Below are positions 271-32,239 of a stretch of DNA of 64,000 bases, one piece after another. The DNA is from Escherichia coli (GTDB lineage Bacteria; Pseudomonadota; Gammaproteobacteria; Enterobacterales; Enterobacteriaceae). The position numbers and the translations under genes are program-made. Position 1 is the first letter of the stretch. The number at the start of each line of letters is the position of its first letter. The notes under the pieces are model-generated. The model saw only the letters and a list, made by a program, of their open reading frames with translations, did not search any database and had not been told where the DNA came from. Where the stretch lies: NCBI RefSeq assembly GCF_029227855.1, contig NZ_CP074356.1. One strand, 5' to 3'.

Positions 271-2535
271 CTACCCGTTATCCACTGGCACGCCAAACCA
301 CTGATGATACCAACGAGGTAAAATTTGCTCCCTGAGGCTGCTAATCCGCCAGCCTTGCGCTGAAAAATTGACCGTTATTTGCCCCTGATGAGGAGTATCA
401 AGCCACGTATAACCCTGTTGTTGATAGCGATGTTTAACTTTGCTTGAGGGCAATCGCCATGCGTTATAGCGCGATGCCGATGCGAGTGCCACTTTTCCAT
501 TCACTCGCTGAATTAATGGTAACGATGATGAGGTATTACTGCCATGATGAGGTACCTGAAGTAATGTTGCCTGCATTTGCTGCCAGTAACGGCTTAGCAT
601 CTTTTGTTCAGCAGGGGCTTCAATATCACCGGTTAGAAGAATGCTATTCGTCCCGTCATCAACCTTAACCACACAGGAATGGTTATTTCCTTTATCGTTG
701 CTACCTTGTAAAGGCCAGTGCGCGCTGAAACGCAATCCTTGCCATTGCCACGCTTCGCCACGCACACAGGGCTGATGATGTTCCCAGTTTAACGGACTTC
801 TGATCCATAACATCGGCCATATATGCAATATTGAATCCAGCCCTCCCCGGTGATCCAGATGTTCATGGCTCAGAATAACGCCTTCCGGTTCAAGATTATG
901 CCAGTGGAGCCAAGGGATAATCAGTTGTTGCCCACTATCTCCTTCAGGCCAGGCCATTCCCGTGTCATAGAGAATCGCTTTGCCGTTTCTGGCTATCACC
1001 ATTGCCAGCCCTTGCCCGACATCAAGCATGTACACTTGCCACTCGTCAGGTCGAGGTTTTTGCCACAGCGGCCAGCACATCAGCAAGCCTACAGCCACAC
1101 ACATTGCTGGCAACGTTCGCCAGGCGTTTAATCGCCATACCACCAGTAAGAACCATGGGGAAAATGTTAGCCATTGCCAACGTTCAGCAATGTTGATCCA
1201 CCCTTCCGGCAAACTCTTTAACCCCCAGAAAAGTAAAGCTAAAGACCGGTCGGCAAGAAACCATAATCCCTCTTCCAGGATTAACGGCCCGCTTAAATGC
1301 ACAACCATAGCGGCGAGGATCAACGGAACCGTGATAAATGTCACCAAGGGAATTGCAAATAGATTTGCAATAAACGAGGTCAGACTAATGCCATGAAATA
1401 TGACGATTTGCACGGGCATAAGCAGGAGGGTGATTCCCAGCTGCAGATGGATGAGGGAAACAACCGCGCGCAATACCGGCGGCAGTTGCCACTCCGGACA
1501 GGGAAACCACTGATACCAAAAAATCAGTGCCGCGACCGCAGCGGCAGAGAGCCATAAACTTTGCGAGAGAATGGCAACAGGATCCATCAGCAAAATTGCC
1601 GCCAGACAACATATCCATACATCCCAGCCACTCCACTGTCGCCCACTTAACTTAAGCATTCCCCACGTAGCAAGCGCCACCACGGTACGAAATGCAGGAG
1701 GTTGCATTCCCGTCAGCCAGGCATAAAAAGCAGCACAGCAGATTCCGCCAATTAATGGCATTTGCCAGTGGATCCAGCGCCCAGGCAGAAAAATTTGTCC
1801 ACTGCGAATGAGTCCGGCAGCCAGCAACGCCGCAAAAGCGATATGCAATCCCGATATCGCCATTAAATGCGCCGTTCCAGTATCGCGCATGATATTTTTG
1901 ATTTCTTTGGGAACGGATAACCGTTCCCCCATACCTAAACCAAGAATAACCGCATTCCACGGATAGGGTTGCAGCGTTGTTTGTAATGACGCCAGATACT
2001 GTGCACGCAGGCTACAATTCGGTTCAATGACACTTACCTGCAGAAAGCGGCCGGTCAGCGGCTGATGCTGGGCAATGGCATAACGCTGGCTATCAAAGCC
2101 GCCATCATTAAGTTGGCCATGAACTGCACGAACTTTGAGTTTCATTGACCACAGTTGCCCAGCACAAACCGCTTGCGGAAGATATTCGCCATACAGCACG
2201 AGGCCTGGCGCAGGGAATATACGTCGACCTTGTAGATGAGTAATTTGACCGTAATGAGTGGTCATACCGTCAGTAGCAGTGATCTCAACAATTGCATCCT
2301 GCGTCGCGCCAGTTAAGGTTTCTCCTGCCCACAAAATTTGCTTTGCTGCTAATATGCCCCAAACGAAAAACAGCAACGTCAGCGCGATATAACGGACAGT
2401 TTTAAAAGGGATAAATACCAGTACGCAGGCGAAGACGGTCAGAGACGCAAGGGGTAATGTCCCAGGCAATTGTGGCAAAACCAGCAACGGAAAAATTCCG
2501 CAAATTATGCATACGCCGACTGTCGTTATTTTCAT
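271..2535 (-). CDS. ycaI: ComEC/Rec2-family inner-membrane protein YcaI (cryptic competence-type DNA channel homolog)
   Basis: 780-aa ORF; polytopic membrane N-terminal part plus C-terminal metallo-beta-lactamase-like HxHxDH motif (LSHEHLDHRGG). Start trimmed to the internal Met (MKITTVGV...) to give 754 aa, the K-12 length as recalled. Confidence 0.85.
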   Translation of the reverse strand: MKITTVGVCIICGIFPLLVLPQLPGTLPLASLTVFACVLVFIPFKTVRYIALTLLFFVWGILAAKQILWAGETLTGATQDAIVEITATDGMTTHYGQITHLQGRRIFPAPGLVLYGEYLPQAVCAGQLWSMKLKVRAVHGQLNDGGFDSQRYAIAQHQPLTGRFLQVSVIEPNCSLRAQYLASLQTTLQPYPWNAVILGLGMGERLSVPKEIKNIMRDTGTAHLMAISGLHIAFAALLAAGLIRSGQIFLPGRWIHWQMPLIGGICCAAFYAWLTGMQPPAFRTVVALATWGMLKLSGRQWSGWDVWICCLAAILLMDPVAILSQSLWLSAAAVAALIFWYQWFPCPEWQLPPVLRAVVSLIHLQLGITLLLMPVQIVIFHGISLTSFIANLFAIPLVTFITVPLILAAMVVHLSGPLILEEGLWFLADRSLALLFWGLKSLPEGWINIAERWQWLTFSPWFLLVVWRLNAWRTLPAMCVAVGLLMCWPLWQKPRPDEWQVYMLDVGQGLAMVIARNGKAILYDTGMAWPEGDSGQQLIIPWLHWHNLEPEGVILSHEHLDHRGGLDSILHIWPMLWIRSPLNWEHHQPCVRGEAWQWQGLRFSAHWPLQGSNDKGNNHSCVVKVDDGTNSILLTGDIEAPAEQKMLSRYWQQMQATLLQVPHHGSNTSSSLPLIQRVNGKVALASASRYNAWRLPSSKVKHRYQQQGYTWLDTPHQGQITVNFSAQGWRISSLREQILPRWYHQWFGVPVDNG

Positions 2536-2741
2536 GCACCCCTCCCTGTTTATGGAAAGTGTGCAACTTTGTTGAGCGGTTGTCTGGTGGGAATTTTGCG
2601 TTCCCCGAGGCACGTTCAGAAGAATTTAACGAGAGGGTGAAAACTGCTCAAAACTCTGCGAGGCAGCTTCCAGTTCCAGATTAGAGAAATGAAAAAAGCA
2701 CCCGACAGGTGCTTTTCTCGCGTTCAAGTTTGAGTAAAAAC

Positions 2742-3026
2742 TTAACCGTAAATATTGGCGCGATCGCGCAGTTCTTTACCTGGTTTAAAGTGAGGAACGT
2801 ATTTTCCTTCCAGTTCTACTTTATCGCCAGTCTTCGGATTACGTCCGGTACGTGGTGCGCGGTAGTGCAAAGAGAAACTGCCGAAACCGCGGATTTCAAT
2901 ACGCTCGCCCTGCGCAAGAGTCGAGGCCATATGCTCCAGCATCTCTTTTACTGCATCTTCAACCGTCTTGGCGGGAATGTGCGATTGCTGGGTGGCAAGT
3001 CTTTCTATCAATTCTGACTTGGTCAT
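2742..3026 (-). CDS. ihfB: Integration host factor beta subunit
   Basis: 94-aa translation [11 protein letters not shown]...[12 protein letters not shown] is the IHF-beta sequence; position downstream of rpsA. Confidence 0.97.
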
Positions 3027-3185
3027 GATTCCTCCGGTTCCTTAAAGGCAAATTAAGCGGCTGCTGTTGCTGCATTGATTAAGGGCGGCCGTAGCCGCCC
3101 TTAGTGCTTGATTACAGGACGAAACCTGCAATCTGTCAAGTAAACTCAACAAACTTCGGAATAAAAATCCCGAAGAGTCAGAGAA

Positions 3186-4859
3186 TTACTCGCCTTTAGC
3201 TGCTTTGAAAGCTTCAGCCATTGCGTTGTTGGAGAAGTTTGCATCTTCCTGTTTGTTAACAGTTGCGATTGCATCTTTCTCGTCAGCTTCGTCTTTCGCA
3301 CGAACAGACAGGCTGATTGCGCGGTTTTTACGATCAACGCCGGTGAATTTAGCTTCAACTTCGTCGCCAACGCTCAGAACCAGGGTAGCGTCTTCAACGC
3401 GGTCACGGGATGCTTCAGAAGCACGCAGGTAACCTTCAACGCCGTCAGCCAGTTCTACGGTTGCGCCTTTAGCGTCAACTGCAGTTACTTTACCGGTTAC
3501 GATAGCGCCTTTCTTGTTCAGAGCAACCCAGTTGTTGAACGGATCTTCTGCGAGCTGTTTAACGCCCAGGGAGATACGTTCACGTTCTGCGTCAACCTGC
3601 AGAACAACTGCAGCGATTTCGTCGCCTTTTTTGTATTCACGAACTGCTTCTTCGCCTGCAACGTTCCAGGAGATGTCAGACAGGTGAACCAGGCCGTCGA
3701 TGCCGCCGTCCAGGCCGATGAAGATACCGAAGTCAGTGATAGACTTGATTTTACCTTCAACACGGTCACCCTTGTTGTGGGTTTCCGCGAACTGCTGCCA
3801 CGGGTTAGCTTTGCACTGTTTCAGACCCAGGGAGATACGACGACGTTCTTCGTCGATATCCAGAACCATAACTTCCACTACATCGCCAACGTTAACAACT
3901 TTGGACGGGTGGATGTTTTTGTTGGTCCAATCCATTTCGGAAACGTGTACCAGGCCTTCAACGCCTTCTTCGATTTCAACGAAGCAGCCGTAGTCGGTCA
4001 GGTTGGTCACGCGACCAGTCAGTTTGGTACCTTCCGGATAACGTTTAGCGATAGCTACCCACGGATCTTCGCCCAGCTGTTTCAGGCCCAGGGATACACG
4101 GGTACGTTCGCGGTCGAACTTCAGCACTTTAACAGTGATTTCGTCGCCCACGTTGACGATTTCGCTCGGATGCTTAACGCGTTTCCAGGCCATATCAGTG
4201 ATGTGCAGCAGGCCGTCAACGCCGCCCAGATCAACGAATGCACCGTAGTCAGTGAGGTTCTTAACGATACCTTTAACTTCCATGCCTTCCTGCAGGTTTT
4301 CCAGCAGCTGATCGCGCTCTGCGCTGTTTTCGGATTCGATAACGGCACGACGAGAAACAACAACGTTGTTGCGCTTCTGATCCAGCTTGATTACTTTGAA
4401 TTCAAGCTCTTTGCCTTCCAGGTGCAGAGTGTCACGCACCGGACGAACGTCTACCAGAGAACCTGGCAGGAACGCACGAATACCGTTCAGCTCAACAGTG
4501 AAGCCGCCCTTAACTTTGCCGTTGATAACACCGGTAACAGTTTCAGCATCTTCGTAAGCTTTTTCCAGCGTGATCCAGGCTTCGTGACGTTTAGCTTTCT
4601 CACGGGACAGCAGAGTTTCACCGAAGCCGTCTTCTACTGCGTCCAGAGCAACGTCAACTTCGTCACCTACCTGGATTTCCAGCTCGCCCTGGGCGTTTTT
4701 GAACTGCTCAGCCGGGATGGCGGACTCAGATTTCAGACCAGCGTCAACCAGTACTACGTCTTTGTCGATAGCAACAACAACGCCACGAACGATAGAACCC
4801 GGGCGGGTTTCGATTTCTTTTAAGGACTCTTCAAAGAGTTGAGCAAAAGATTCAGTCAT
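3186..4859 (-). CDS. rpsA: 30S ribosomal protein S1
   Basis: 557-aa ORF with repeated S1 domains, N-terminus [16 protein letters not shown]; cmk-rpsA-ihfB order. Confidence 0.98.
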
Positions 4860-4969
4860 GTTTAATCTTCAGGTTTATATTTAACGTCCACCTGGCTCCA
4901 TGCCGGATGGGGTTGTTTAACATACCCGCTGTCATTCCATTGCAACGGGGGTACTGCAAATTCGGTCGC

Positions 4970-5653
4970 TTATGCGAGAGCCAATTTCTGGCGCGCGTAT
5001 TGTAGCGCTTTTTCAATCACTTGCTCAATGCTTAAGGTGGTGGAATCCAACACTAAAGCATCGGCTGCCGGAACCAGTGGCGCTACCGCTCGGTTACGAT
5101 CGCGGTCGTCGCGTTCTTTGATCTCGGCCAAAAGGCGCTCAAAGTTAACACTAAAGCCCTTCTCCTGCAACTGTAGCATGCGGCGATGCGCACGTTCTTC
5201 CGAGGAGGCGTCAAGGAAAATTTTCACTGGCGCATCAGGGAATACCACCGTTCCCATATCGCGGCCATCGGCAATCAAGCCTGGTAATTCGCGAAACGCG
5301 CGTTGGCGACGCAATAATGCTTCACGAACGCGTGGGAATGCCGCGACTTGTGAAGCAGCATTCGCCACTTCCTGAGTACGAATTTCGCCGCTGACATCTT
5401 CCCCTTCGAGGATCACTTCCAGATTGCCATTGGTCGACACAAAACGTACATCCAGATGGGATGCCAGCGGCACGAGCGCATCTTCCGATGCAACATCAAC
5501 ATGGTGATGTAATGCCGCCAGTGCCAGTACGCGATAAATTGCACCCGAGTCCAGCAGATGCCATTGCAACGCTTCCGCCATAGCCTTACACAAGGTGCCT
5601 TTCCCTGCACCGCTTGGGCCATCAATGGTAATAACCGGGGCAATTGCCGTCAT
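4970..5653 (-). CDS. cmk: Cytidylate kinase
   Basis: 227-aa ORF with P-loop GPSGAGKGT near the N-terminus; immediately upstream of rpsA. Confidence 0.96.
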
Positions 5654-5825
5654 CTTTATCTCCTTAAAACAGGCGTACCGTTAACATAACCGCGCGCATT
5701 ATACGCGCCGACGCCACAAATCGTTAACGTTGTGTGCAAAAACCAGTTTTGTCTGTATTCAGATGGGGATTTATTGCGCAATTATAGCGGGCTGGCAGAA
5801 GACCAGCCCGAAAGATGACAATGAT

Positions 5826-6590
5826 TTACTTACCAGAGGCGATACGATCACGGATGTGTTGCGCACGCTCTGTTGATGGTGGGTGAGAGTCAAACATGGA
5901 CTGGGTACGACCGCCATCCAGGCTGGCCAATTTTTCAAAGCTGCCAACCAGCCCCTGGGTGCTGATGCCACGTTTCTTCAACAGATCAAAGGAGAAATCA
6001 TCTGCTTCGGACTCTTTATCGCGGGAGTATTTAGCATTGATCGCGCCTTCTGCGATATCACCTAATTGTGAGCGGGAAAGCTGGGAAGCCACACCGCTGG
6101 TAGCGGAAATCGCATCACGTGCGGCAACGATCGCATAAGAAGCTTTCATTTCAGCCAGCGAGTGACCCAACGCGACGTGGCCCAGTTCATGACCCAGAAC
6201 GCCTTCAATTTCGTTGTCGTTCATCATGTCCATCAGGCCACTGTAGACACGAACACAGCCGTTCGCCATCGCCCATGCGTTGACGTCGCTGGTCATATAA
6301 ACCTTATAGTTGACCGGCGTGCCATTAATATTGTTACCCAATGCTTTGGCGATTTTTGCCAGACGTTTACCGTACTTGCTGGATTTACTTGCGACTTGAT
6401 TGCCGCGGTCCATTTCGGCACAGCCCTGATTGGCAATCGCTTTTGCATCAGCATCGCTTAACGTTGCTGCTTTATAGGCATTTAAACCTGAGCTGATAGC
6501 CATATTGGTATCAATACCGTGGGTATTTTGACACCCTGTCAGTAATGCTGCAGAGGCCGCAATCGCCAGCAGTAATTTAGTATTCTTCAT
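5826..6590 (-). CDS. loiP: Outer-membrane lipoprotein metalloprotease LoiP/YcaL (M48 family)
   Basis: Lipoprotein signal with LTGC lipobox and HELGH zinc motif; start trimmed to MKNTKLLLAIA (254 aa) rather than the longest ORF. Confidence 0.9.
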   Translation of the reverse strand: MKNTKLLLAIAASAALLTGCQNTHGIDTNMAISSGLNAYKAATLSDADAKAIANQGCAEMDRGNQVASKSSKYGKRLAKIAKALGNNINGTPVNYKVYMTSDVNAWAMANGCVRVYSGLMDMMNDNEIEGVLGHELGHVALGHSLAEMKASYAIVAARDAISATSGVASQLSRSQLGDIAEGAINAKYSRDKESEADDFSFDLLKKRGISTQGLVGSFEKLASLDGGRTQSMFDSHPPSTERAQHIRDRIASGK

Positions 6591-6758
6591 GTGAATCATC
6601 CGTTGATTAATCATATATAAATATTATGTATCAATAACTTACATTGACAAACGACGCTACCATTAATCAAAATGACTCACAAGGTCCGAAAAAAAACGCC
6701 GGCAATGTGCCGACGTTTTGATAAAGAAAGATTTGGCTATTTATTGCACGTTGTTCAT

Positions 6759-8042
6759 TCAGGCTGCCTGGCTAATCCGCGCCAGCTGCTCGAAATAATC
6801 CGGAAATGTTTTGGCCGTGCATTTGGGATCAAGAATCGTCACTGGTGTATCTGACAACGCCACCAGCGAGAAACACATCGCCATCCGGTGATCATTGTAT
6901 GTTGCGATCTCGGCAAAGTTCAGTTTTTCCGGTGGAGTGATACGAATGTAATCGTGCCCCTCTTCTACTTCCGCACCAACTTTACGCAGTTCTGTTGCCA
7001 TCGCAAACAGGCGATCGGTCTCTTTAACACGCCAGTTATAGATATTGCGCAGCGTGGTGGTGCCTTTTGCAAATAACGCCGCCGTGGCAATGGTCATCGC
7101 CGCATCAGGAATATGGTTCATATCCATATCAATAGCGTTCAGTTCACCCCGCGTGCAGGAAATATAATCATCGCCCCAGCAAATGGTCGCGCCCATTTTT
7201 TCCAGCACATCAGCAAAGCGAATATCACCCTGCATACTGTTGCGTCCAATGCCGGTCACTTTTACAGTGCCGCCTTTGATTGCTGCTGCTGCCAGGAAGT
7301 AAGAAGCCGAAGATGCATCGCCTTCGACCAAATAAGTACCCGGAGACTGATAAGACTGCCCGCCTTTTACGACAAATTGTTGATAGTGCTGATTTTCAAT
7401 TTCAACACCAAACGTCTTCATCAGATTGAGTGTGATGTCGATATAAGGTTTAGAAACCAGATCGCCTTTAATACGAATCACCGTATCTTCCGGTGCAAGA
7501 GGCGCAGTCATTAACAGTGCGGTGAGGAACTGGCTGGAAACGGAGCCATCAACGTCAACGTTGCCGCCAGTAAAGCCGCCCTGTAAACGCAATGGTGGAT
7601 AATTTTCTTGTTCCAGGTAAGTGATCTTCGCCCCGCCCAGGCGCAGCGCATCCACCAGATGACCAATCGGGCGCTCTTTCATACGCGGCTCACCAGTCAG
7701 CACAATATCATTGCTACCCAGACAAAGAGCTGCCGCCAGCGGGCGCATTGCCGTTCCGGCGTTTCCGAGGAACAACTCCAGGGCACCTTCTGCGTGTAAT
7801 GGACCGCCGTTACCGATAATTTCGCAACGCGTACGATCAGCTGAAAGCGTATAGCTTACCCCTAACGCTGCTAATGCATTCAGCATATGGCGCACGTCAT
7901 CGCTATCCAGCAGATTGGTTAATACTGTTTTGCCGTGTGCTAATGCCGCCAGCAATAAAGCGCGGTTAGAAACGCTCTTGGAACCGGGCAGATTAATAGT
8001 GCCATCGACACGAGCGATGGGTTGTAACGTCAGGGATTCCAT
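6759..8042 (-). CDS. aroA: 3-phosphoshikimate 1-carboxyvinyltransferase (EPSP synthase)
   Basis: 427-aa [27 protein letters not shown]-terminus typical of AroA; serC-aroA operon order. Confidence 0.97.
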
Positions 8043-8112
8043 GAACTCAACTCTCTACAACAGAAATAAAAACCCCACAGGCTGGCTGTGGGGATTAAGC
8101 AAAATTTCGGCA

Positions 8113-9201
8113 TTAGCCGTGACGGCGTTCGAACTCAACCATGAAGTCTGTCAGCGCTTTAACGCCTTCCAGCGGCATGGCGTTATAAATAGACGCGCGC
8201 ATTCCGCCGACCACACGGTGACCTTTCAGCGCATGAAGGCCAGCAGCAAAAGACTCTTCAAGGAACAATTTGTCAAGCGCACTGTCCGCCAACTGGAACG
8301 GCACGTTCATCCGCGAACGGTTAGCTTTCGCCACGTCATTGCGGTAGAAATCGCTGTTATCAATCACCCCATACAGCAGTTCTGCTTTTTGCTGATTGAT
8401 TTTATCCATTTCAGCTACACCGCCGTTCGCTTTCAGCCATTTAAAGACCAGACCAGACAGATACCAGGCAAATGTCGGCGGCGTGTTAAACATGGAGCCG
8501 TTATCGTTGAGGATGGAATAATCCAGAATCGACGGACACGCGATATTCGCTTTGCCCAGCAAATCTTCACGAACGATGACGATTGTCAGGCCTGCCGGGC
8601 CGATATTTTTCTGCGCGCCAGCGTAAATTACACCATAACGGCTGACGTCAATCGGACGGGAAAGAATGGTTGAAGAGAAGTCGGCGGCGACCACCACATC
8701 TTTGCCGAAGTCTGGCGTTTCGTCGATAGCGATACCGTCGATGGTTTCATTCGGGCAGTAATGCATATAAGCAGCATTATCAGAGAGTTGCCATTCGCGC
8801 ATTGGCTTAACCGCGCGCAGACCATCAACAGTCACTTTGGCGTCGAAGACATTAGGCGTGCAATATTTTTTCGCTTCTTTAATGGCACTTGCCGCCCAGT
8901 AACCGGCATCAACATAATCTGCGGTGGTTTTATCACCGAGAATATTCAGCGGAACAGCAGCAAACTGACCGCGACCGCCGCCATGGCAGAACAATACCTT
9001 GTAGTTGGAGGGGACATTAAGAAGATCGCGAAAATCCTTCTCGGCTTCCTCTGCAACCTGAATGAACTCTTTGCCACGGTGACTCACTTCCATCACCGAC
9101 GTACCAAGACCGTTCCAGTCGCGCAGTTCCTGTTGAGCCTGTTTAAGCACCTCTGCCGGTAGCATTGCCGGACCAGAACTAAAATTGAAGATTTGAGCCA
9201 T
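8113..9201 (-). CDS. serC: Phosphoserine aminotransferase
   Basis: 362-aa [19 protein letters not shown]-terminus; upstream of aroA. Confidence 0.97.
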
Positions 9202-9399
9202 TTCCCCTCACCACGTTGCGTTGCTATTAACCCGCGGTCAATCGATTGCGACCACAGGTAATACATTATTCCTGTGGCTATCGGTTTTATCATTCAGTGA
9301 CACACATCGCAATGAGTAAAACCGTTGAGGGCAAAAATGTGGCTTGCATCACACAAAAGAATCTCTTGGATTATTAGCAAAAAGCCGATGTTTTTACTG

Positions 9400-10092
9400 T
9401 CACGTCACCCGTTTTGCCCGACTTGCCTTCGTCCATTCTGGATTTGCACAGCGCGGACATAATTGTTTTTCCCCCGCGTTCATATGAATGATTTCACTGC
9501 AACGAATGCAGGCATAGTCCGCCGACTCGGGTACCACTTTGTAACGCTGAGTACAGTCACTGGGTAAAATAAGTAAGCCCGGTTTCACCTTGTCATCTTC
9601 AAAGAAATAGACACTGATTTGCCCGTTGGTTTCGAGAATCGCCAGACGTACTTGCCCCAACTGCTCTACACCGCGCAATCGTAGCTCCATAAAGAACTCA
9701 AATTCCGTCATGTTGGAGTTATTGAGTTTCGACCAGGCCAGCTCGCCATCTTCAATAATGACAACCGGCTTACCTTCCAGAAGATCTTCCAGTTTTTCAC
9801 TGTGTGCCATCAACCACATTACCAGGCGGTATAACAACGCCAGAGTAATAAAGACGATAAGTACCGGGACCATCGGCACATCATCATAAAACGCCACATC
9901 TCCCGCCGCTGATCCCAGCGTCAGAATGATTAACACTTCAAAAAGCGACATCTGCCGCACACCGCGTCTTCCGGTCATTTTGAGGAACAAAAAAACCAGT
10001 ACAAAGGTATAAAGACTACGTAGTGCCACTTCGCCAAGGAAATCAAAAGGCACTTTATCAAATGCCATACGGTGGAGATCAAACGCCTTCAT
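9400..10092 (-). CDS. ycaP: DUF421-family inner-membrane protein YcaP
   Basis: 230-aa ORF with N-terminal transmembrane segments; position between serC and ycaO matches K-12. Confidence 0.85.
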   Translation of the reverse strand: MKAFDLHRMAFDKVPFDFLGEVALRSLYTFVLVFLFLKMTGRRGVRQMSLFEVLIILTLGSAAGDVAFYDDVPMVPVLIVFITLALLYRLVMWLMAHSEKLEDLLEGKPVVIIEDGELAWSKLNNSNMTEFEFFMELRLRGVEQLGQVRLAILETNGQISVYFFEDDKVKPGLLILPSDCTQRYKVVPESADYACIRCSEIIHMNAGEKQLCPRCANPEWTKASRAKRVT

Positions 10093-10221
10093 TTTTATGC
10101 TCTTATCGTGGTTTATCCACTAAAAGCATAGTCAACAGTTCATCGGCATGGCGGCGGTGATAGCGCCTTTGAGATAAAACCCGTATTATTGCGCGCTTTC
10201 CGTACGACTAAAGTGATTTTC

Positions 10222-11982
10222 ATGACGCAAACATTTATCCCCGGCAAAGATGCCGCACTGGAAGATTCCATCGCTCGCTTCCAGCAAAAACTTTCAGACC
10301 TCGGCTTTCAGATTGAAGAGGCCTCCTGGCTGAATCCGGTGCCTAACGTCTGGTCTGTACATATTCGCGACAAAGAGTGCGCACTGTGTTTTACCAACGG
10401 TAAAGGCGCAACCAAAAAAGCGGCGCTGGCTTCTGCACTCGGTGAATATTTCGAGCGTCTCTCAACCAACTACTTTTTTGCTGATTTCTGGCTGGGCGAA
10501 ACCATCGCCAACGGTCCGTTCGTGCATTATCCCAACGAAAAATGGTTCCCACTGAGCGAAAATGACGATGTGCCAGAAGGGCTGCTCGATGACCGTCTGC
10601 GCGCATTTTACGATCCGGAGAATGAATTGACCGGCAGTATGCTGATTGACCTGCAATCCGGTAACGAAGATCGTGGTATTTGCGGTCTGCCGTTTACGCG
10701 CCAGTCCGACAATCAGACCGTTTATATTCCGATGAATATCATTGGTAACCTGTACGTTTCTAACGGTATGTCCGCTGGCAATACCCGCAACGAAGCACGC
10801 GTTCAGGGGTTGTCCGAAGTTTTCGAACGCTACGTGAAAAACCGCATTATTGCTGAAAGCATCAGCTTGCCGGAAATCCCGGCAGACGTGCTGGCGCGTT
10901 ACCCAGCGGTGGTTGAAGCCATCGAAACGCTGGAAGCAGAAGGTTTCCCAATCTTTGCTTATGATGGTTCGCTTGGCGGCCAGTATCCGGTGATTTGCGT
11001 GGTACTGTTTAATCCTGCTAACGGCACCTGCTTTGCCTCTTTCGGTGCGCATCCTGATTTTGGCGTAGCACTGGAACGTACCGTGACCGAGCTGCTGCAA
11101 GGTCGTGGCCTGAAAGATTTGGATGTGTTTACTCCGCCAACCTTCGATGATGAAGAAGTTGCTGAACATACCAACCTCGAAACGCACTTTATCGATTCCA
11201 GCGGCTTAATCTCCTGGGACCTGTTCAAGCAGGATGCCGATTATCCGTTTGTGGACTGGAATTTCTCCGGCACCACGGAGGAAGAGTTTGCTACGCTGAT
11301 GGCTATCTTCAACAAAGAAGATAAAGAAGTTTATATTGCCGATTACGAGCATCTGGGCGTTTATGCTTGCCGAATTATCGTGCCTGGCATGTCCGATATT
11401 TATCCGGCTGAAGATCTGTGGCTGGCGAATAACAGTATGGGCAGCCATTTACGTGAAACGATTCTTTCGTTACCAGGCAGCGAGTGGGAAAAAGAAGATT
11501 ACCTGAACCTCATCGAGCAACTGGATGAAGAAGGTTTTGATGACTTTACCCGCGTGCGTGAGCTGTTGGGTCTGGCGACCGGGTCGGATAACGGTTGGTA
11601 CACCCTGCGTATCGGTGAATTAAAAGCCATGCTGGCGCTGGCTGGTGGCGATCTGGAACAGGCTCTGGTCTGGACCGAATGGACGATGGAGTTTAACTCA
11701 TCAGTATTTAGTCCGGAACGCGCCAACTATTATCGCTGCCTGCAAACGTTGTTATTACTGGCGCAGGAAGAAGATCGCCAGCCGCTGCAATATTTGAATG
11801 CGTTTGTTCGCATGTACGGCGCAGATGCCGTGGAAGCCGCCAGTGCGGCAATGAGCGGCGAAGCGGCGTTTTATGGCTTGCAACCAGTAGATAGCGATCT
11901 GCACGCGTTTGCAGCACATCAGTCGTTGTTGAAGGCCTACGAAAAGCTGCAGCGCGCCAAAGCAGCATTCTGGGCAAAATAA
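10222..11982 (+). CDS. ycaO: YcaO-domain protein (founding member of the YcaO ATP-dependent amide-activating superfamily)
   Basis: 597-aa ORF trimmed to MTQTFIPGKD (586 aa); location upstream of focA-pflB. Confidence 0.93.
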   Translation: MTQTFIPGKDAALEDSIARFQQKLSDLGFQIEEASWLNPVPNVWSVHIRDKECALCFTNGKGATKKAALASALGEYFERLSTNYFFADFWLGETIANGPFVHYPNEKWFPLSENDDVPEGLLDDRLRAFYDPENELTGSMLIDLQSGNEDRGICGLPFTRQSDNQTVYIPMNIIGNLYVSNGMSAGNTRNEARVQGLSEVFERYVKNRIIAESISLPEIPADVLARYPAVVEAIETLEAEGFPIFAYDGSLGGQYPVICVVLFNPANGTCFASFGAHPDFGVALERTVTELLQGRGLKDLDVFTPPTFDDEEVAEHTNLETHFIDSSGLISWDLFKQDADYPFVDWNFSGTTEEEFATLMAIFNKEDKEVYIADYEHLGVYACRIIVPGMSDIYPAEDLWLANNSMGSHLRETILSLPGSEWEKEDYLNLIEQLDEEGFDDFTRVRELLGLATGSDNGWYTLRIGELKAMLALAGGDLEQALVWTEWTMEFNSSVFSPERANYYRCLQTLLLLAQEEDRQPLQYLNAFVRMYGADAVEAASAAMSGEAAFYGLQPVDSDLHAFAAHQSLLKAYEKLQRAKAAFWAK

Positions 11983-28171: not shown

Positions 28172-31100
28172 TTAGTCAAACGGCGGTGGGGCCAGCACTT
28201 CACGATTACCGTTGTGCCCCTGTTCGCTGACAATCCCCTGCGCTTCCATCTGTTCGATAATACGCGCTGCACGGTTATAACCAATGCGGAACTGACGCTG
28301 TACGCCAGAAATTGATGCTTTGCGTTTTTCAGTGACAAACTGCACCGCCTGATCGAACAACGGATCCAGCTCTTCAGCGCCATCGAAACCGCCCGCGCCA
28401 CCTTCGCTTTCGCTGTCGGAGGTGATGCCATCAACATACTGTGGGCGACCACGCGCTTTCCAGTCCTGCACCACGGCATGAACTTCCTGATCGCGAACAA
28501 AAGCACCATGGACACGTACCGGCAACGTGGAGTTCGGCCCAGAGTAGAGCATATCCCCCATACCCAGCAGTGATTCCGCACCAGCCTGATCAAGAATGGT
28601 ACGTGAGTCAATCTTACTGGATACGGTAAAGGCGATACGGGTCGGAATATTCGCTTTAATCAGACCAGTAATAACATCAACCGATGGACGCTGCGTTGCC
28701 AGTACGAGGTGGATACCCGCGGCACGGGCTTTTTGCGCCAGACGTGCTATAAGCTCTTCCACTTTTTTACCTACCGTCATCATCAGGTCGGCAAATTCGT
28801 CCACCAACACCACAATGTACGGTTCTTTTTTCAGCACCGGATGCTGGGCATCCATACTGTCACCCGGCTTCCAGTACGGGTCTGGAATCGGACGCATCAT
28901 GCGATCGGCTTCAGCAATTTTTTCGTTATAACCCGCCAGATTACGCACACCTAGGGCGGACATCAGCTTATAACGACGTTCCATTTCATTTACGCACCAG
29001 CGCAAAGCGTTGGCAGCATCTTTCATGTCGGTAACGACTTCCGTTAACAGATGCGGAATGCCTTCATAAACCGAAAGCTCCAGCATTTTCGGGTCGATCA
29101 TGATGAAACGCACATCTTCTGGCTGTGCTTTATAAAGCATGCTCAGGATCATCGCGTTCACCCCGACAGACTTACCGGAACCGGTAGTCCCCGCAACCAA
29201 CAAGTGCGGCATTTTCGCCAGATCGGCAACCACCGGCTCACCGGCGATATCTTTACCCAGCACCACGGTTAATGGCGACGGATTATCGCGGAATTTGGCG
29301 TTATCCAATACTTCGCGCAGATAAACGGTTTGTCGTTTTTTATTCGGTAACTCCAGACCTACATAGGGTTTGCCAGGAATAACTTCAACGACACGCACCG
29401 CCACCGTCGAAAGTGAACGGGCAAGGTCCCGTGACAAGTTAGAAATGCGCGCCGCTTTTACGCCCGGTGCCAGGTTAAGTTCAAAGCGAGTGATAACCGG
29501 CCCCGGAGAGTAATTGACGACATCGGCTTTAATACGGAAATCAGCCAGACGCGCTTCCACCAGACGCGCCATTTGTTCAAGCGCAAAGGTATCTACCGGC
29601 TCCACTTCGCTCGGCGGCGGTGTCAGCAAATCCAGAGAAGGCAGCGGCGTCGTCGGTTTATGCAACGGACGGCTGTCACCATTGCGCATCAACAGCGGAT
29701 GAAGCAGGGTATCATGCGGCTGCGGCGCAACTGGCTGTTGCGGCTGCTGATATTGCGGCTGCTGTGCAACCGGCTGTTGCGGCTGCTGATATTGCTGCTG
29801 CGGCGCAACCGGTTGTTGTGGCTGCTGATATTGCTGCTGCGGTGCAACCGGCTGTTGCGGCTGCTGATACTGCGGCTGCGGCGCAACTGGTTGCTGCGGC
29901 TGCTGATACTGTTGCTGCGGTGCAATCGGTTGTTGCGGCTGCTGTACAGGTTCAACAATTGGCGTAAACAGCGGTTCGTGTGGACCATCATCCAGCAACG
30001 CTTTCATTGGCGAAAATTCAAAATCATCCAGCGTGAACGGATTCGCCCCAGCCGGTTGTTCGCCGGAATAACGTTGTTGTTGAGTTTGAGCAAACTGACG
30101 AGCCAGTTCAGCCTCTGCCGCAGCATCTGCATCTTCTGCGTTCGCGGGCACATCATGTTGATACTGTTCGCCATAGCGTTGCTGCTGTGTCTGGGCGAAC
30201 TGACGTGCCAGTTCATCCTGCTGCATCGCATCGATTTCATCATCGTTATAATGATCGCCGGAATCGTACTGATTGCGCTGGGCTTCACGGGCTTTTTCTT
30301 CTGCCGCACGCTGTGAGGGCAGCTTAATACCGTAAGACGCCAGTTCACGACGAGTTGGCACGCGGATACGTTTCGGTCGTGGCAACTGCGGGCCAATCCC
30401 CTCTTTGACCTGCGGACGCGGTCCACCGCTATTTGCCAGACTGAAGACTGGCGCGGCAACGGTTGCGGCAGCCCCCGTCGCCAGTGTCGCTTTTTTCACG
30501 CCAGATGCCAGCGGAGAAACAGCGGCAGCGGCTTCTACTGGAGGTACTGCTGCAACAGAAGGTGCTTTCAGCGAAGATTTGATCGGTTCTGGTTCTTTAA
30601 CCGGTTCTGGAATCGGTTGATACCAGGCCGCAAGTTGTTCACGTTCACGGGCTCGCTTCTCTTCCACTTCTTCAAAGTAGTAAAGCGGCGGACGCGCGGG
30701 TTTTGTCTCTTCTACAACGGGTTCAGGCTCCACAACAGGCTGCTGTTCAACAGGTTGCGGCTGTTGGTACAACGGCTCCTGAGCGACTGGCTGCTGATAA
30801 GTTTGCTCAGTCTGGTATGTAGACTGTGGAGCAAAAGTGGATTGCTGCTCTTCGGCTTGCCAGGCGTTACCTGCCACCGATTGTTCTGGCGCAGGGGCGT
30901 AATACGGCTGTTGCGCAGACTGTTCCGGCGCAGGGGCGTAATACGACTGTTGCGCAGACTGTTCCGGCGCAGTTGCGTAATACGGTTGCTGAACAGGTTG
31001 TTCCGCCGCAGGCGCATAATACGGCTGCTGTGGCTGTACAGGTTGTTGCAGCGGCTCATTATATTGCACTGCAGGCTGCGCATATTGTGGCTGCTGTGGG

Positions 31101-32239
31101 TAACCTTCCGGTGCCGGAGCAATCACCGGCTCTCCCGTTTGTGGCCCCGGTACAGGCTGCCAGGCTACTGTAGGTTGTGCAGGTGCAACATCAACAGAGG
31201 CAACAGGTGGCGTCTGAGTCACAGGTTCAACCGGTGCAGCCCAGCTTTGCGTCGCCGTGGTAGCAGCAGCTGCTACAGCAACAGGTTCGGTAATTGGCGC
31301 ACCGTTTAATAATGGATCGTACTCGTCATATTCTGGCTGCGTTGCACGATTGCCCGAAAAGAGGACGTCGTCAGGGTCGGCAGCCACACCGCGTGCAGTG
31401 TAGGTAATCTCTTCTTCATCATCCATCCGCTTACCGGAGAACAACGCAGCATCTGTTTGCCGCCCCATCGGATTAATAAATTTTTCCGCCAACCGTTTAC
31501 GACGCGCTAGCGCGCCGCGAAGAATACGGGCACGGCGTGATTCATGCTGTTTGCCGTGATTTTCATCTTCATACTCTTCGTCGTCTTCATACTCATCTTC
31601 ATCGACCCAGGTATCATCGCGACGGGTACGATTACTGGCGAAGGTAAGAATATTTAAAATCCAGCCGCCGAGTTTTTCAGCAATGGTCACCCATGACCAA
31701 CCGGTGAACAGCGTCAGGCCCGCTGCCCAAACGCAGAGCAGCGCAATAGTTCCCCCGCTACTGTGTAGCAGTGGTTGTAGCGTAGTGCTTAGTAAGCTGC
31801 CAATGACGCCACCGGAGGCAAAATACCAGATATCGTCAGCGTTGATTGCCGCCAGACCACAGGAGGTAAGGATGAGCGCCAAAACGCCAATGATGCGTAG
31901 CGAAACGGCAAAATAATCAATGTATTCGTCGCTGGACTGATGACGCCAGGCAAACCAACAACCGCCGACAATAATGACGGGAATGGTGTAAGCCATCACG
32001 CCAAAAATAAAGAACAGCGTATCTGCCAGCCACGCACCGGGCATCCCACCTAAATTATGGATAGGTTCATGCCAGGCCGTTTGCGACCAGCTGGGGTCCG
32101 AAGGGTTAAAGCTTAGTAAGGCAGCCATCAACCAGACGGCAAACAGGACAATAAGGATCAGCAACGCCTCCAGAAGGCGGCGGCCGCTACTTAACTTTGT
32201 CAATGTGACTTCTTTGTCTTCAGTGTATTCCTGGCTCAA
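28172..32239 (-). CDS. ftsK: DNA translocase FtsK (with expanded Pro/Gln-rich linker)
   Basis: 1355-aa ORF: N-terminal membrane domain, long PQ-rich linker, C-terminal motor with Walker A GTTGSGKS. 26 aa longer than the K-12 length I recall (1329 aa). Confidence 0.97.
29715..29950 (-). repeat. In-frame 39-bp tandem repeats (about 6 units) encoding the [13 protein letters not shown] linker motif of FtsK
   Basis: Near-identical 39-nt units (ctgttgcggctgctgatattgctgctgcggcgcaaccgg and variants) visible directly in the sequence. Confidence 0.85.
30883..31040 (-). repeat. Second in-frame 39-bp tandem repeat block (about 4 units) encoding [13 protein letters not shown] in the FtsK linker
   Basis: Repeated ttccggcgcaggggcgtaatacggctgttgcgcagactg units seen in sequence. 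Confidence 0.8.

Follow-up and report, generated by a model that had tools for sequence, protein, structure and literature searches.

The feature of interest in the window (the whole 64,000-nt stretch of Escherichia coli contig NZ_CP074356.1 analyzed here) is located in a long minus-strand ORF, 28172..32239, with a TTG start codon and a predicted product of 1355 aa. It is flanked by lrp upstream and by lolA and rarA downstream, and the lrp-ftsK-lolA-rarA gene order matches that of K-12 and other annotated genomes. Pfam analysis of the translated product identified an N-terminal four-helix membrane domain (FtsK_4TM, PF13491; aa 20-191, E 5e-42), the motor alpha domain (FtsK_alpha, PF17854; aa 866-966), the P-loop ATPase (beta) domain of the motor (FtsK_SpoIIIE, PF01580; aa 974-1187, E 9e-88) and a C-terminal winged helix (FtsK_gamma, PF09397; aa 1290-1350, E 3e-28). 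A Walker A motif (GTTGSGKS) was also present. The membrane domain, the alpha and beta motor domains, the gamma domain and the orthologous gene position are those of the FtsK/SpoIIIE family, and on this sequence evidence the predicted product is E. coli FtsK. The FtsK gamma domain reads KOPS and activates XerD, and the corresponding region of the window protein is identical to that of K-12. Given its near-identity to K-12 FtsK, the window protein would be expected to function in DNA translocation and in activation of XerCD-dif recombination.

The annotated ftsK of E. coli JNEC-KY178 (NZ_AP045174.1) matches the window gene with 100% identity, and a search of 5,426 complete genomes of E. coli found an ftsK 95-99% identical to the window copy in nearly all of them. 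The same search returned 13 match places on plasmids and, in many genomes, a second match place that probably represents repeat-shifted alignments of one gene.

Two 39-bp tandem arrays in the FtsK linker

The membrane domain is joined to the motor by a Pro/Gln/Ala-rich linker of approximately 670 aa (approximately aa 192-865; 29645..31666, minus strand), in which the Pfam search of the window FtsK identified no domains. Proline and glutamine account for 13.6% and 15.4% of linker residues, as against 7.1% and 3.4% of motor residues. This linker contains two in-frame tandem arrays with a 39-bp (13-aa) unit, here designated blocks A and B. Block A (30872..31027, minus strand), which corresponds to the VNTR locus ms06 (allele 4), consists of four parsed 39-bp units of the PYYAPAPEQ type, each encoding 13 residues on the coding strand and differing from one another at several bases. 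Tandem Repeats Finder placed this array at 30882-31027 with a period of 39 bp, 3.7 copies, 85% matches and a score of 201. Block B (29715..29944, minus strand), corresponding to the VNTR locus ms07 (= CVN001), lies at ftsK nt 2290-2525 and was reported by Tandem Repeats Finder at 29715-29944 with a period of 39 bp, 5.9 copies, 87% matches and a score of 334. It was parsed into five full QQPVAPQ(Q/P)QYQQP units and one partial unit, and its QQQ and QPQ unit variants give rise to a 78-bp super-period (2.9 copies by Tandem Repeats Finder). The arrays thus extend over approximately 156 nt (block A) and 230 nt (block B).

A second repeat search agreed with Tandem Repeats Finder on both arrays. Identity at a lag of 39 nt was 0.86 in block B and 0.80 in block A, with no value above 0.38 in the rest of ftsK, and the maxima obtained in 2000 codon shuffles of the array segments were 0.61 and 0.52, respectively. 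A first-pass annotation of this DNA had described an FtsK of 1355 aa with two blocks of 39-bp repeats located in the linker between membrane anchor and motor. The ORF list and Tandem Repeats Finder bear out this description, including the coordinates, unit sequences and counts given there, and both arrays fall within the Pfam-free stretch.

Several other repetitive features were observed in the linker. Lone degenerate copies of the 13-residue block B unit are found elsewhere, at window positions 30754-30796 and 31074-31098, and suggest that the linker was built by older duplications of one motif. A 14-aa motif occurs twice, at FtsK aa 676-689 and 711-724 (35 aa apart; window approximately 30068-30109 and 30173-30214), and is similarly duplicated in K-12 FtsK; the two copies are dispersed and do not form a tandem array. 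At window positions 31562-31603 the plus strand carries seven copies of TTCATC, a 6-bp repeat encoding a 14-residue acidic run of FtsK. Strains CM2 and 98218 have one additional Glu codon in this repeat, accounting for their FtsK proteins of 1369 and 1356 aa, and it represents a third, small length-variable site in ftsK. Plus-strand ORFs antisense to ftsK span the arrays at 29573-30316, 29620-29967, 30617-31309 and 30826-31173, with repetitive Leu/Arg- or Ala/Val-rich translations. These are by-products of the repeats in a conserved gene rather than separate genes.

Comparison with K-12 FtsK

FtsK of K-12 MG1655 (NC_000913.3, b0890, NP_415410.1) is 1329 aa long and its gene likewise has a TTG start codon. 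Protein alignment with the window FtsK, a comparison that had been proposed in the first-pass annotation, gave 15 substitutions over 1329 aligned residues and a sole gap of 26 aa. The window segment without a K-12 counterpart was aligned at 30917..30994 (78 nt, minus strand; FtsK aa 416-441), its placement inside the array being arbitrary. This gap is equivalent to two 13-aa units, as had been supposed from the length of the protein, and lies wholly in block A, which has four units in the window and two in K-12. The number of block B units is the same in the window and in K-12. The earlier arithmetic consequently holds, with block A accounting for the whole of the excess; a contribution from both blocks is ruled out by the equal length of block B in the two proteins.

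Copy number variation across E. coli

A survey of repeat copy number across E. coli genomes had also been proposed. Three systematic samples, each of 60 rows taken at even intervals along the ranked hits from the 5,426 complete genomes, gave 50 usable rows for whole-gene length (full coverage) and 59 each for block A and block B with their flanks; the collection is clinically biased and the census consists of samples rather than a full count. The most frequent ftsK length was 3990 nt (14 of 50 genomes), followed by 4107 nt (12), the 4068 nt of the window (nine) and 4029 nt (eight). Two genomes had a gene of 4044 nt, and lengths of 3951, 4071, 4083, 4110 and 4146 nt were each seen once. All sampled lengths were multiples of 3 and most steps between them were of 39 nt.

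Both arrays were found to vary in 39-nt steps. Block A had four units in 19, three units in 21 and two units in 19 of 59 sampled genomes. Block B had the same count as the window in 21 of 59 genomes and one unit more in 24, with smaller numbers having two more (five genomes), three more (two) or one fewer (two). A further five genomes exceeded the window block B by 15 nt. Strains GN06489, 21KM1392 and Nissle 1917 have such a 15-nt partial unit (an additional QYQQP) within block B, and this produces gene lengths that do not fit the 39-nt series (4044 and 4083 nt, for instance). The linker in the window had been described as lengthened by extra units. This is true relative to K-12 (26 aa), but beyond K-12 four block A units are one of three near-equally common states, and the one outgroup analyzed has two.

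When the samples are taken together with 17 alleles that were parsed, block B ranged from one to nine units, and the FtsK proteins of these 17 alleles ranged from 1277 to 1381 aa. The longest has nine block B units. The shortest, from strain 2012C-4227 (locus 2401-6234), has block B reduced to a single unit where the closest sampled relatives have nine, indicating that a natural near-deletion of block B is tolerated. A length of 1355 aa was reached by at least three combinations: four block A and six block B units in the window, two and eight in CREC-544, and three and seven in E600003 and APEC O2-211. Compensation between the arrays that would hold total length constant was unsupported in the small sample of 18 parsed alleles, in which two block A units occurred with five to eight block B units, three with one to nine, and four with six or seven.

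History of the window allele

A neighbor-joining tree was constructed from the ftsK DNA that remained once the two arrays had been cut out. Close relatives on this tree differ in copy number. K-12 has six block B units and PK6 five, the PK6 block being the K-12 array without its first unit, and CREC-544 and CM2 have two and three block A units, respectively. Strain 2012C-4227, with its single block B unit, adjoins two strains with nine. Alleles with four block A units occur in two separate clades and their unit sequences are different, which indicates independent expansions.

Among the sampled strains, KK05-19 lies nearest to the window allele, with 0.66% divergence when the repeats are left aside, and it has three block A units. 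Its last 13-residue unit combines the head of window unit 3 with the tail of window unit 4, a signature that a one-unit register shift between neighboring copies would produce. The polarity of block A was assessed with a single outgroup, Escherichia sp. MOD1-EC7003 (locus 6407-10459; 4.75% divergence), which has two block A units and approximately eight block B units. Most of these block B units carry a 13-residue variant of their own. Such homogenization indicates concerted evolution and continuing turnover of units.

When species-representative genomes were scanned with a degenerate pattern from beside block A, the sole match was MOD1-EC7003, yet all 17 of the E. coli loci fetched carry the pattern. 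It seems that the E. coli representative is either absent from the scanned set or divergent at this pattern.

Array length was constant within clones. At least 37 genomes with an ftsK 98.9% identical to that of the window all have a gene of 4068 nt, and the sampled K-12 derivatives and O157:H7 genomes each show a single length at both blocks. As the block A units of the window differ at several bases and the allele is found lineage-wide, it is of long standing and was inherited rather than produced by fresh slippage. Recent slippage in this strain is thereby ruled out. The arrays are slow-changing and not hypermutable.

Correspondence to known typing loci

The length polymorphism described here is already known, the two arrays being the established strain-typing VNTR loci ms06 and ms07/CVN001. 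The generic E. coli MLVA scheme that includes CVN001 is reportedly that of Lindstedt and co-workers from 2007. Primers for ms06 and ms07 are listed with attribution to a French Shigella study (Shigella/E. coli MLVA scheme), ms06 having a 39-bp unit, alleles 2, 3 and 4 and amplicons of 301-379 bp, and ms07 having amplicons of 392-821 bp (PMC8215070). CVN001 primers are likewise listed for generic E. coli MLVA, where this locus has a 39-bp unit and is among the most polymorphic of the scheme (PMC8143711), and elsewhere the locus is labelled 'CNV001 (ftsK)' (PMC11773471).

These primer sites were located in the window. The ms06 forward site is at 31121..31140 (minus strand, one mismatch) and the reverse site at 30762..30781 (plus strand, exact). 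Forward sites for ms07 (30185..30204) and CVN001 (30039..30057) are exact matches on the minus strand, and the two reverse sites, also exact, overlap at 29613..29637 on the plus strand (CVN001, 29613-29632; ms07, 29618-29637). In silico PCR of ms06 gave 379 bp for the window (allele 4) and 301 bp for K-12 (allele 2), the two ends of the published range, whilst ms07 (587 bp) and CVN001 (445 bp) amplicons were equal in size in the window and K-12. The arrays therefore have flanking published primers, a 39-bp unit, polymorphic copy number and, for ms06 and ms07, amplicons inside the published ranges, all features of the VNTR loci.

Origin and significance of the window allele

Taken together, these data are best explained by an ordinary, lineage-specific, inherited ftsK allele that arose from old gains and losses of units, with a near-neutral change in length, an interpretation to which we assign a probability of approximately 0.9. 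Two arrays of 13-codon units in an unstructured Pro/Gln-rich linker would gain or lose whole units over evolutionary time, and the pattern of alleles suggests that this turnover occurs by slipped-strand mispairing or unequal recombination between neighboring units. Any gain or loss is in frame, since 39 bp is exactly 13 codons, and alters linker length alone. Four block A units (two in K-12) and approximately six block B units (as in K-12) would in this way give rise to the 1355 aa of the window protein compared with 1329 aa in K-12.

Assembly is known to go wrong at tandem repeats, and a 1355-aa product could in principle be unreal if the 39-bp arrays had been expanded or collapsed by the assembler. 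The arrays are short however (approximately 156 and 230 nt), and the 100% identical 4068-nt gene of NZ_AP045174.1 comes from an independent complete genome. Among the matches listed, 37 more complete genomes, of many different host and laboratory origins, carry a gene of 4068 nt at 98.9% identity, the exact FtsK protein is recorded under several NCBI accessions on 17 contigs, and amplicons of the predicted ms06 size (379 bp) have been obtained by PCR from unrelated isolates. The occurrence of an identical gene or one of equal length in so many independent complete genomes rules out an assembly artefact, for which we see next to no probability. The location of the repeats inside a coding region might also suggest a contingency locus, in which a hypermutable array switches FtsK within a clone in a manner resembling phase variation. 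A 13-codon unit makes frameshifting or on/off switching impossible, and all observed lengths are multiples of 3. Lengths are moreover constant within clones, namely the at least 37 genomes of 4068 nt at 98.9% identity, the K-12-derived strains and O157:H7. The in-frame unit and stable clonal lengths rule out such a switch, which we consider extremely improbable. The arrays had been called slippage-prone in the first-pass annotation, and this is apt on an evolutionary time scale, over which copy number varies in 39-nt steps, but not in the short term.

Unit number might instead be under selection, setting how far the tether that joins septal anchor and DNA motor can reach, how stiff it is, or how it contacts divisome proteins, the four-unit allele then having a functional consequence. 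The FtsK linker is unstructured, varies in length between species and is needed for full activity; parts of it contact FtsQ, FtsL, FtsI and FtsZ, and large linker deletions impair FtsK function (PMC5357621). The reading frame is also kept in all natural variants, although with a 39-bp unit this is automatic. Against selection for a particular length, natural alleles span one to nine block B and two to four block A units with no sign of compensation between the arrays, one strain has a single block B unit, and equal total lengths result from different combinations of A and B. The 26 aa separating the window and K-12 proteins represent approximately 4% of the linker of approximately 670 aa, and the natural range of FtsK length exceeds 100 aa. 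In the one direct test of a natural repeat indel that was found, an 84-bp ftsK difference was swapped between two Salmonella Enteritidis strains, and survival in egg white, the sole phenotype assayed, was unchanged (PMC6137255). We therefore regard adaptive tuning as very unlikely. A still more doubtful proposition is that copy number of the two arrays is non-neutral through tuning of motor reach from the septum or of divisome engagement, so that lineages would differ measurably in when, or how efficiently, chromosome dimers are resolved and the septum closes over DNA. Most likely the 26-aa change has little or no effect on fitness.

Interpreted as an inherited allele of this kind, the feature is an ordinary example of a known VNTR polymorphism and is neither new nor surprising. 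It types the strain as ms06 allele 4 with a K-12-sized ms07/CVN001 allele, information that is useful for typing alone. For annotators it is a reminder that, where E. coli genomes differ in FtsK length, the variants are genuine alleles and not errors. Were linker length to affect function, the natural series of one to nine units would be a ready experimental set; the present data give no hint of such an effect.

Relationship to known systems

Compared with K-12 FtsK, the window protein and its gene are alike in domain order, TTG start codon and gene neighborhood and differ by two additional block A units (26 aa). Block A is the same locus as ms06, with the same unit and primers, and the window carries the largest published allele. 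CVN001 is the same array as ms07, and for this array the window block B allele is equal in length to that of K-12. A 39-bp repeat in Salmonella ftsK is also used for typing, as MLVA locus STTR7/SENTR2 (PMC2430564), and the natural 84-bp indel of Salmonella Enteritidis is located at ftsK nt 2269-2352 (PMC6137255). STTR7/SENTR2 shares its 39-bp repeat with block B, and the indel has the same relative position as block B; although from another species, the Salmonella enterica array is probably orthologous to it, as judged by position alone.
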